Positions 7,527 through 10,315 of a DNA stretch of 64,000 bases are shown here, piece by piece. Origin of the DNA: Dictyostelium discoideum (Eukaryota); contig CM000150.2 in NCBI GenBank assembly GCA_000004695.1, positions 1,984,001-2,048,000 of the forward strand. Direction: 5' to 3'. Under the pieces are notes generated by a model, which did not search any database, was not told where the DNA came from, and worked only from the letters and a program-made list of their open reading frames with translations. How positions within the stretch are numbered: the first letter of the stretch is position 1; each line of letters begins with the position of its first letter. The translations under genes and the position numbers were made by a program.

Positions 7527-9860
7527 TTAATTAATAATTTTTGAAATATAAATACAATATCTTTTAACTCTTTGACCATTATTCCAAAGTTTATTAAAAT
7601 AAGAATAACCATAATCTTCAGATAATTGAATTAAGTAAGTTTCTTTAACTGGTTTATAAATTTTTAGTAATTTTTTTGATTTTGTAAGGATATCTATAAT
7701 TTGATCACTATAATCTTTATCATCAGTTACAATTGTGAGTGTACCATCTTTTTTTAAACATCTATTAATTTCAATGAGGAATAACTCATTGATAAGACGT
7801 TCAGCACCAGACCAAACTGGTGGATTTGGATAATTGATATAAACTTCATTCAAGATATTATCTGGTATGATCTCTTTTAGCGAACCATGAGCATCACCAC
7901 CCACTATATAAAGGTTATCAATTGCTTCAAGTATCATTTTACTCCAAATTTGAAAGATACGATCGTAACGAATTTCCAAAGAGATCCAATCTGCATCTAA
8001 ATCTTGACCGGCTCTTTCAGTCACCCAATGACCGTGACCTGAACAAATCTCCATTTTAAGTGATCTATTACTATTGAAATTGCTACCACCCTTTTTATAA
8101 GAATTGAATAAACCATTGAATGACGATAATGTAGAGTCTGGTGAGGTTGCAACTGTGACAGGTTTACATTGTTGATCGATACTACGATTGACATTATTCT
8201 TAAAAGTATTCTTTGAGAAATAAATACGATTAAAACTTTCCATATTATGATACTTAATTTTTGAACGTGATTCTGTCATTTTTGAAAGATAATTTCTAAC
8301 ACGATCAGATTCTTCATTGATCTCCTGTTTGTTAATTCTTTCAAACAATGAAGAGGAGATCTTATTCTTTTCTGAAAGTTTACCTTTATTTTTATGAGTG
8401 GTTTGAGTTGATCTTGGTGCTTTCGATAGAATGTCATCAGTGATACCCAATGCTTTAACCGAGGATTTAATATCACCAGCTAATAACGATGCCAATGATA
8501 GACGTGAGAAACAAATGGGTGATATTTGACCTTGCATTCTTTCATAAACTTTACCTAGTAAATCCCAAATCTCTTGTACCATTAAATGATGAGAATAGAT
8601 TTTTATCAAATATTCAATGGTGGTTGAATCGGGATAGATCTCATTGGCTTTCATTAATTGTATTAATGATTTAGTGATTTCAATATCACCAGATCTAATA
8701 CAACCACGAAATATGGAATTAAAAGTACGAATATTTGGTTTGGTTTCAATCATACCCTTAATTGTAGCAAATGATTCATCCATATCAATTTCACAAAGTG
8801 CTTTCACATAGATTGTATAAACCACTTCATTGGCATTACCATCTTTAACTGCATCTTGAAAAACTTCTTTCACTTTTTTATACTCTTGACATCTTACACA
8901 TGCATTCAACATAACACCATAGGTAATATGATCTGGTTTTGCTCCAATCTTTTTTAAATAATTATATGCTTTAACCAATTGAACATAATCTTTTGCTTCT
9001 GCACATGATGACATTTGTGATGTAATTTTATTAATAACTGCTCTATTATTTCTAACAATTGATTCTTTTTTTGGTTCTTCTTCTTTTTTTACTTCTTTTT
9101 CTTTTTCTTTTTCTTCTTTTTTATCATTTAATTTTTTATTTTTCTTTTGATTTACTTTTTTTTCTTCATTAATTTCAGTTGTTTTTTCTGTTTCTGTTGT
9201 TTCTGTTGTTGTTGTTGTTGCTGTAGCTGTAGCTATTGTTGGTTCATTTGGCGTTGTTGTGGTTGGTGGTGGTGTTGTTTTTGGTTTCTTTTCTTTTGGT
9301 TTCTTTTCTTTTGGTTTTTCATTTGTTAATTTAATTTTTTTATTTGATTCTTCTTGTGTTTTAGTTGGTGGTGTTGGTGTTGGTATTGGTGTTGGTGTTG
9401 GAATTACTTTTTTAAAATCATAAAAATCAACAATAACTTTTTTATCACCAATGGTTTTACCATTAACTAAATTTTTAATCTATATAAATAAATAAAAATA
9501 AAATAAAATTTGACATTAAATTAGAAATCTTTTTTTTTATTTATATTTTTTTTTACATATGTGCCAACTTACTATTGATAATTGTGATAAATTTTGAGAT
9601 GATAAAAATGAAATAGTTGTATCAGCATCAACTTTACCAATTAAATCTGGTGGTAAAGTAATTGGAATTGTAATATTTATAGAAGGATTTTGAATAATTT
9701 TCTTTAAATTTTCAATAATTTCATTTTTGCTAATTGATTTTGGAATATTTTTAACAATTAATTTTGTAATTGAAACTCCTCCACCGCCTCCTCCTAAAAT
9801 ACCAATTGATGTTGGTGCTGTTGATCCTAATGAATTACCAAATTTTCTTTTTAAATCCAT
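7527..9860 (-). CDS. Pentatricopeptide-repeat protein with a C-terminal TrmB/METTL1-like tRNA (guanine-N7)-methyltransferase domain and a Lys/Glu/Thr/Pro-rich N-terminal region. CDS is join(9860..9573, 9479..7527), about 746 aa.
   Basis: Exon 1 (MDLKRKFG...SQLSI) ends at a GTAAGT donor. An AG acceptor at 9480 continues in frame (IKNLVNGKTIGDKK...) through the 495-aa track ORF. PPR-like repeats (ITYGVMLNACVRCQEYKKVKEVF, TIYVKALCEIDMDESFATIKGM and others) precede a methyltransferase region. That region has EICSGHGHW, LEIRYDR and INYPNPPVWSGAERLINELFLIEINRCLKKDGTLTIVTD, matching METTL1/TrmB motifs (EIGCGxG, LEIR, FPDPHFK...RII...L...GG..YTITD). Confidence 0.6.
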
Positions 9861-10225
9861 ATTTTGAAAATAAAAATAAAAAACGATGGTTATTGTTTTT
9901 GATTAATCGTTTTTAAATGAATTTAAAAATAAAAAAAAAAAAAAAAATGAAAAAACGAAAAATTGGATTTTTATTTTTTTTTTATTTTTTTTATTTTTAA
10001 TTTTTTTATTTTAATTTTACATTTTTCATAATCATTTGTAAGTAATAGTTATTATACTTTTTGATTTTTTACCCCCTTAATGATGACTAATTAATTTTAT
10101 TTAATTTTATTTTTATTTTAAATTTGTATTTACATTTTTTTTTTTTTTTTAATTTAATTTTTAATTTTTTAATTTTTTTTTTTTTTTTAATTTTTTTTTT
10201 AATTTTTGGATTCTTTTTTTCCGCA

Positions 10226-10284
<59 letters not shown>

Positions 10285-10315
10285 CTTTATTCGATTACAT
10301 AGAAATTGATTAACA

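Follow-up and report, generated by a model that had tools for sequence, protein, structure and literature searches.

Locus, gene model and identity of ptcE

The window analysed here, a stretch of Dictyostelium discoideum DNA of 64,000 nucleotides (nt), is very AT-rich, with approximately 25–36% GC in coding sequence and approximately 10–15% between genes; this AT-richness is as expected in Dictyostelium. On the minus strand of the window we delineated a two-exon gene whose start codon ATG occupies positions 9860–9858 and whose stop codon TAA occupies positions 7529–7527. From its N terminus to its C terminus, the product comprises a domain with a predicted RRM fold, a linker of low complexity, the PPR tract and, last, a Methyltransf_4 domain (Table 1). 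The first-pass annotation, made from the sequence of the window, had placed a protein of approximately 746 amino acids (aa) at 7527–9860, and both the extent and the length proved to be exact. The exons contain 25–29% GC, compared with 13% in the intron, and exon 2 keeps an open frame of 1953 nt within sequence of approximately 22–30% GC, which is far beyond chance. The D. purpureum orthologue, traced in genomic DNA, has its first intron at the same codon (between LSQLSM and ARNILNGK), and the exon junction is gap-free in an alignment with all 12 dictyostelid orthologues. The order of genes is also common to the D. discoideum window and D. purpureum, with SelK (SelK/SelG) on one side of ptcE and LSM on the other. 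Because the PPR tract and the methyltransferase domain are encoded in one 650-codon exon, their fusion is independent of the intron model.

Table 1 Features of the ptcE gene and its product, with positions in the window
Feature	Positions	Strand	Residues	Description and evidence
ptcE coding region, ATG to TAA	7527..9860	-	1-746	2334 bp, 746 aa, two exons
ptcE exon 1	9573..9860	-	1-96	96 codons; N-terminal tail, predicted RRM β1-β3 and start of helix α2
ptcE intron	9480..9572	-		Phase 0, 93 nt; GTAAGT...ATAG; 13% GC; read-through gives in-frame stops
ptcE exon 2	7527..9479	-		Single open exon, 1953 nt, 650 codons
Predicted RRM-fold domain	9414..9773 (range includes intron)	-	~30-118	β1 α1 β2 β3 α2 β4; AlphaFold2 and Foldseek
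Linker	9063..9413	-	~119-235	Low-complexity, T/P/K/E-rich; length and sequence vary between species
PPR tract	8424..9047	-	~241-448	12 helices, about 6 helical hairpins; Pfam, NCBIfam, AlphaFold2 and Foldseek
Inter-domain element	8268..8396	-	~458-500	Basic, helical (HKNKGKLSEKNKISSSLFERINKQEINEESDRVRNYL; ...SSLFERINKQEINEESDRVRNYL); many columns invariant across dictyostelids
TrmB/METTL1-type class I SAM methyltransferase domain	7530..8063	-	~569-746	Pfam PF02390, sequence profile and Foldseek
Motif I, EICSGHGHW	8025..8051	-	573-581	SAM-binding glycine loop; aligns to E-x-G-x-G-x-G of solved TrmBs; invariant in dictyostelids
Motif IV variant, YPNPPVW	7812..7832	-	646-652	Asn648 codon at 7826-7824; alignments to 3dxx, 1yzh, 2fca and 2vdv
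Thr681-Asp682	7722..7727	-	681-682	'TD' of LTIVTDD, equivalent to E. coli T179-D180; invariant in dictyostelids; alignments

The window gene is almost certainly D. discoideum ptcE, a member of the PPR-TGM subfamily. [quoted passage not shown] Its size, protein length and order of domains, the PPRs being followed by the C-terminal TGM domain, are identical to those of the window gene. The best database match to the window protein was a D. discoideum isolate protein (96–97% identity), and a look-up of the exact 746-aa sequence in the protein collection did not find it; we therefore infer the identity from the agreement in size, length and architecture together with the isolate protein. Further dictyostelids, D. 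purpureum and Heterostelium (Polysphondylium) among them, have orthologues, the methyltransferase domain has a probable chlamydial affinity, and we see no essential difference between ptcE and the window gene, which we regard as the same gene.

The first-pass annotation had been unaware of a fusion of PPRs to a TrmB-like domain as a standard architecture. The fusion is real but already published: it is in fact the architecture of the PPR-TGM subfamily, of which ptcE is the founding member (PMC3753752, PMC4029402). The subfamily was named by Manna & Barth (BMC Res Notes 6:525, 2013; PMC4029402), who listed 22 proteins from slime moulds, Entamoeba, Perkinsus, green, cryptophyte and haptophyte algae and diatoms, and who proposed a chlamydial origin for the methyltransferase domain. 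Mitochondria were also proposed as the compartment in 2013, and the Mitoprot score of PtcE was given as 53% (PMC3753752). With a score only at that level, the mitochondrial prediction for the PtcE N-terminus is ambiguous, and PtcE may work in mitochondria, in keeping with the organelle targeting suggested in the first-pass annotation, or in the cytosol. Entamoeba, the host of some PPR-TGM members, lacks an organellar genome. The words 'RRM', 'catalytic' and 'aspart' do not occur in the 2013 papers by Manna & Barth, and our literature search found neither experimental work on PtcE nor later experiments on PPR-TGM proteins. Beyond the 2013 papers, the present analysis makes three modest additions, namely the predicted N-terminal RRM fold, a clade-wide PP-type motif IV with loss of most of the basic loop that follows it, and an Asp-to-Asn change in the dictyostelid motif.

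Domain organization of PtcE

Modelling of aa 1–125 with AlphaFold2, on the basis of a 9-sequence alignment, yielded a tail of low predicted confidence (aa 1–29) followed by an RRM fold, with pLDDT values of 79–90 per 10-residue block over aa 31–120. When the model was compared with the PDB using Foldseek, the best 50 matches were all RRM domains (E approximately 2e-4 to 1e-3), with TM-scores normalised to the target of up to 0.78. Structure prediction thus indicates that the N-terminal domain has a true RRM fold. The first-pass annotation had assigned an RRM-like character to the N-terminal exon; the RRM fold is supported by the model, but it draws on both exons and becomes complete only after exon 1 is joined to exon 2, so that exon 1 alone does not hold it. 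Pfam RRM_1 gave no match to PtcE at E ≤ 1, and the sequence shows a single aromatic residue in the RNP1-like TTISFLSS and none in the RNP2-like LIVKNI. Because Pfam RRM_1 is silent and most of the RNP1 and RNP2 aromatics are absent, it is uncertain whether this domain binds RNA. A hidden Markov model (HMM) of the domain matched, among 166 family members, only the 12 dictyostelid orthologues. On these matches the domain appears to be restricted to dictyostelids and would thus represent a lineage-specific addition. Downstream of it, the long charged linker described in the first reading is present as the disordered, T/P/K/E-rich stretch listed in Table 1.

The PPR tract was recognized by four Pfam families above cutoff over approximately aa 244–407, PPR_2 (E = 7e-15), PPR_long (E = 8.8e-9), PPR_3 and PPR, and was also matched by NCBIfam TIGR00756. 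We count about 5–6 PPR motifs in it. PPR-TGM proteins are characterized by about 3–7 PPR motifs N-terminal to the catalytic domain and by a C-terminal Methyltransf_4 domain in the same polypeptide, and PtcE has both, encoded in a shared exon. A second AlphaFold2 model, covering aa 232–746 with a mean pLDDT of 67, placed 12 helices at aa 241–448 and a Rossmann-like domain in the C-terminal half; its methyltransferase domain, likewise built from a 9-sequence alignment, is a model of moderate confidence at that mean pLDDT. Foldseek searches with this model returned designer PPRs, PPR10 and PRORP1 (6bv5), followed by TrmB and METTL1, which were the sole methyltransferase matches. The presence of PPR repeats and a TrmB/METTL1-type domain in one protein, as originally proposed, is therefore supported by Pfam (PF02390 and the four PPR families, all above cutoff on the conceptual translation), by the shared exon and by the agreement of the folds. 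We also read the PPR code by eye and found canonical pairs at positions 5/35 (T/D, T/N and N/D) in approximately 3 of 6 repeats, which are too few for target prediction, and set this approach aside.

The basic element that connects the PPR tract to the methyltransferase domain can also be recognized, though weakly, in non-dictyostelid homologues of the PP type described below (E from 4e-7 to 1e-3). We infer that it may extend the catalytic domain on its N-terminal side.

Methyltransferase active site and the wider family

Methyltransf_4 (PF02390) matched aa 569–703 of PtcE with E = 4.5e-23 and 82 bits, against a cutoff of 24. A sequence profile matched the TrmB structures 3dxx, 1yzh and 2fca and the Trm8 structure 2vdv in the PDB, and the active-site alignment was referenced to the solved TrmBs 3DXX, 1YZH, 2FCA and 7NYB and to Trm8 2VDV. 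The four motifs quoted in the first-pass annotation are all present, EICSGHGHW and YPNPPVW at the residues given in Table 1, LEIR at aa 597–600 and LTIVTD at aa 677–682. Residues E573, G577 and G579 of motif I, the motif II acid E598 and D625-A626 of motif III align to the solved TrmBs; of these, dictyostelids vary only at position 625 (D or E), with E573, G577, G579, E598 and A626 unchanged throughout. The Thr-Asp pair is likewise kept; in the mechanism proposed for Aquifex aeolicus TrmB, this pair holds guanine N1-H/O6 (PMC10130221). The intact motifs I–III and Thr-Asp pair of PtcE count toward SAM-dependent methylation.

Motif IV departs from this pattern. In 13 of 13 dictyostelid sequences (12 orthologues and the window protein), Asn648 takes the place of the Asp of FPDPW, which corresponds to D144 in E. 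coli TrmB and D163 in METTL1. The basic loop that follows reads PVWSGAER in PtcE versus WHKARHNKRR; the equivalents of H151 and R154 are lost, and R657, the equivalent of E. coli R155, is the sole survivor of the three. Residue roles in TrmB and METTL1 were drawn from PMC10130221 and also from PMC6320965. Substitution of the motif IV Asp in E. coli TrmB (D144A) reduces the single-turnover rate from 14 to 0.09 per minute, that is, about 150-fold, and leaves an enzyme that is nearly inactive yet binds tRNA more tightly (PMC10130221). Because the Asp replaced by Asn in PtcE is functionally important in TrmB and METTL1, the methyltransferase domain is not fully 'complete-looking', as it had first been called: the description holds for motifs I–III and the TD pair but fails at Asn648, at the missing H151 and R154 equivalents and in the comparison with three NCBIfam TrmB equivalog models, for which PtcE scores far below cutoff (TIGR00091, 58.6 versus 112.65; NF001080, 43.6 versus 132; NF010719, 59.6 versus 402). 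A further residue, N725 (SYF-N725), possibly equivalent to E. coli E220 and METTL1 E240, was considered as a second lost acid and rejected, because HMMER gave a different alignment here and because short relatives with the canonical motif already vary at this position.

Twelve dictyostelid orthologues, 50–97% identical and each carrying PPR families together with Methyltransf_4, were found in taxa that include a D. discoideum isolate, D. purpureum, Polysphondylium, Tieghemostelium, Acytostelium and Heterostelium. A word-indexed homologue search with the methyltransferase domain alone gave no match. An exhaustive profile search with the dictyostelid methyltransferase domain against 1.84 billion cluster representatives gave 3645 matches at E ≤ 1e-3, 70 of them at E ≤ 1e-30. 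Among the best 150 of these 3645 matches, motif IV separated 116 non-canonical from 32 canonical sequences. The canonical sequences are short (median approximately 230 aa) and have the bacterial FPDPWPKxRHxKxR, whereas the non-canonical ones, many of them long, nearly all have a motif IV of the form [FY]P[DENQ]PP.W, which we refer to as PP type. Pfam scans of 92 PP-type representatives detected Methyltransf_4 in every one and PPR_2 in 44 as well. Many of the representatives in which PPR_2 was not detected are contig fragments. The cluster names of 10 representatives denote mostly metagenome proteins and one protein of Protostelium, which, together with the 12 dictyostelid orthologues, places the same fusion in other Amoebozoa, where the first-pass annotation had suggested looking for it. 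The fusion of PPRs with Methyltransf_4 thus occurs widely.

Among 160 sequences, the 12 dictyostelid orthologues included, the acidic position of motif IV in the PP-type clade is D in 47, E in 53, N in 17 and Q in 4. Because this position varies among D, E, N and Q, the clade as a whole has relaxed a residue that canonical TrmB keeps, and because its motif IV is [FY]P[DENQ]PP.W rather than the bacterial FPDPWPKxRHxKRR, the greater part of the basic tRNA-binding loop is missing from it.

One of the short canonical-motif matches was traced further and was 96% identical to a protein from a Candidatus Anoxychlamydiales metagenome-assembled genome, followed by Waddliaceae, Parachlamydiales and Chlamydiae. 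The chlamydial kin of this one bacterial-type match agree with the published proposal (PMC4029402). A scan of genome contigs with the dictyostelid profile confirmed no bacterial relative, and a second scan, with one bacterial-type match, led to Chlamydiae.

Relation to known enzymes and predicted function

PtcE resembles bacterial TrmB (EC 2.1.1.33; 3DXX, 2FCA and 1YZH) in its Rossmann-fold Methyltransf_4 domain, its equivalents of motifs I–III, its TD pair and the Arg equivalent to R155. It differs in having Asn for D144, in lacking H151 and R154, in falling below three of three NCBIfam equivalog cutoffs and in being longer at its N terminus by about 560 residues, which hold the RRM and PPR modules. 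Trm8/METTL1 has the same catalytic fold (Foldseek matches 7pl1, 8d5b and 8eg0) and, like PtcE, an accessory RNA-docking element outside the catalytic core, which in PtcE is putative. METTL1, however, needs a separate WD40 partner (Trm82/WDR4), whereas the putative docking modules of PtcE are part of the same polypeptide; moreover, the domain of PtcE is of bacterial (apparently chlamydial-like) type, not eukaryotic as in Trm8/METTL1, and its D163 equivalent is Asn. PRORP, in which PPRs are joined to an NYN nuclease, resembles PtcE in coupling a short PPR tract to a catalytic domain for tRNA processing, which in PtcE is putative, and the PRORP-type Pfam family PPR_long and the Foldseek match to PRORP1 both fall on PtcE (PPR_long at aa 244–407); the catalytic domain is a nuclease in PRORP and a methyltransferase domain in PtcE.

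Taken together, we consider it highly probable that PtcE is a PPR-TGM protein with a TrmB-like methyltransferase domain that is predicted to act on RNA. This domain would bind SAM and methylate RNA, most likely tRNA, while docking of the substrate would fall to the PPR tract and the connector, joined in dictyostelids by the RRM. These modules may replace the basic WPKxRHxKRR loop or the N-terminal extension of bacterial TrmB, or the WDR4/Trm82 partner of Trm8. Given the PRORP-like character of the PPR tract, docking at the tRNA elbow is a reasonable analogy, but only an analogy, for what the PtcE PPRs might bind. That PtcE makes m7G on tRNA is, judged from its sequence, a tentative assignment to which we give slightly less than even weight, and the sequence-guided choice of substrate suggested in the first-pass annotation is likewise tentative.

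If PtcE is an active methyltransferase, its target could instead have drifted away from N7 of tRNA G46 to another nucleotide, atom or RNA (mitochondrial rRNA or mRNA), with the PPRs and the RRM choosing the site. Such a drift would fit the motif IV of the clade, which is [FY]P[DENQ]PP.W with a variable acidic position in place of FPDPWPK and the basic loop, as well as the scores below the TrmB equivalog thresholds. The motif (D/N)PP(Y/F/W) is that of amino-group methyltransferases, and the dictyostelid NPP superficially recalls it. In organelles, moreover, m7G at tRNA positions other than 46 lacks an assigned enzyme (PMC6320965). We nevertheless judge a drifted target rather unlikely, since the closest solved folds and sequences all belong to m7G46 enzymes (TrmB, Trm8 and METTL1), the Thr-Asp pair proposed to hold guanine N1-H/O6 is conserved, and the nearest bacterial relatives, to go by the one match traced, are ordinary chlamydial TrmBs.

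It is improbable that the dictyostelid methyltransferase domain is a dead pseudoenzyme that persists as a SAM- or RNA-binding module, PtcE then being an RNA chaperone or stability factor. Pseudoenzymes usually erode their SAM-binding and active-site residues, whereas dictyostelids, although deeply diverged, show no variation in the SAM-binding residues of motifs I–III or in the TD pair. The change of the motif IV Asp to Asn, the near inactivity and tighter tRNA binding of the corresponding E. coli D144A enzyme and the gain of an extra RRM domain in the dictyostelid lineage only would all be compatible with a binding module; Asn, however, could still hydrogen-bond the SAM amine or the base, and clade members with Asn or Gln at motif IV keep the rest of the active site. 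Because it has lost the carboxylate of motif IV, together with the greater part of the basic loop, and has gained an RRM, dictyostelid PtcE could have ceased to be an m7G46 enzyme in either of two ways, by acquiring a new RNA target or atom or by becoming a SAM-binding pseudoenzyme with a role as RNA chaperone, a joint outcome that we hold to be unlikely.

The fusion could, finally, be an artefact of a wrong gene model that merges two or more separate genes, as the first-pass annotation had cautioned, but we found no support for this and reject it with near certainty, because the only model-dependent join, between exons 1 and 2, touches the RRM domain alone, a single open reading frame of 650 codons covers both the PPR tract and the methyltransferase domain, the intron is canonical at its ends, low in GC and conserved in position in D. 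purpureum, the RRM fold is complete only with the exons joined and the same domains recur in 12 orthologues.

Renewed recognition of a PPR-methyltransferase fusion adds nothing in itself, as the fusion was published in 2013. PPR-TGM is a biochemically uncharacterised family, a rare case of PPR proteins with a predicted RNA-methylating domain, and one whose TrmB part was apparently derived from chlamydiae. Should a change of substrate underlie the PP-type motif IV, the dictyostelid Asn and the lost basic loop, this family could, speculatively, explain organellar or cytosolic RNA methylations that have no assigned enzyme.

Gene neighbourhood of ptcE

The minus-strand gene ptcE is flanked by a divergent SelK/SelG-like gene and a convergent LSM-family gene, the stop codon of the latter lying approximately 110 bp from that of ptcE. 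The LSM-family gene seems to be interrupted by short AT-rich introns, and an LSM gene (PF01423) occupies the equivalent position at the D. purpureum locus that carries the ptcE orthologue; the SelK–ptcE–LSM order is therefore conserved.

The final exon of the SelK/SelG-like gene reads ACNSASGS-TGA-GPK-TAG in the D. discoideum window; the corresponding stretch of the orthologue in D. purpureum is ACNAASG-TGA-GPK-TAG (L001, ~2080-2045, minus strand). Because the TGA is in frame and is followed by conserved codons, the sequence points to its use as a selenocysteine codon. SelK is among the known selenoproteins of Dictyostelium.

The intergenic stretch common to the divergent ptcE and SelK genes (9940..10300) has a GC content of ~10% and contains a poly-T run of >50 nt (~10229-10289). 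Such an AT-rich, poly-T make-up is typical for Dictyostelium promoter regions.

Features in and around ptcE (window coordinates)
Feature	Position	Strand	Description
LSM-family gene	6918..~7417	+	Convergent to ptcE; product [52 protein letters not shown]...
Conserved helical motif	8268..8396 (aa ~458-500)	-	S.LF.R(I/L)..QE(I/V)..E(S/C).RV..YL; between PPR tract and methyltransferase domain of ptcE
SelK/SelG-like gene	10316..~10923	+	Divergent to ptcE; product MPPKPTYVSGG...

Inter-domain helical element

The helical motif of ptcE was matched weakly in non-dictyostelid PP-type homologues (E 4e-7 to 1e-3) and may extend the catalytic domain in a clade-specific way.

Origin of the PP-type motif IV

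Members of the PP-type clade, defined by the motif IV form [FY]P[DENQ]PP.W, are mostly long and often PPR-bearing. The short relative that we traced falls in the short group with the canonical motif, as do its next relatives, which come from Chlamydiae metagenome-assembled genomes (Anoxychlamydiales, Waddliaceae and Parachlamydiales; L002-L009). Like the other short matches, the traced relative keeps the canonical FPDPWPKxRH, so the PP-type motif IV appears to be a derived trait of its clade rather than an inheritance from the proposed chlamydial donor.
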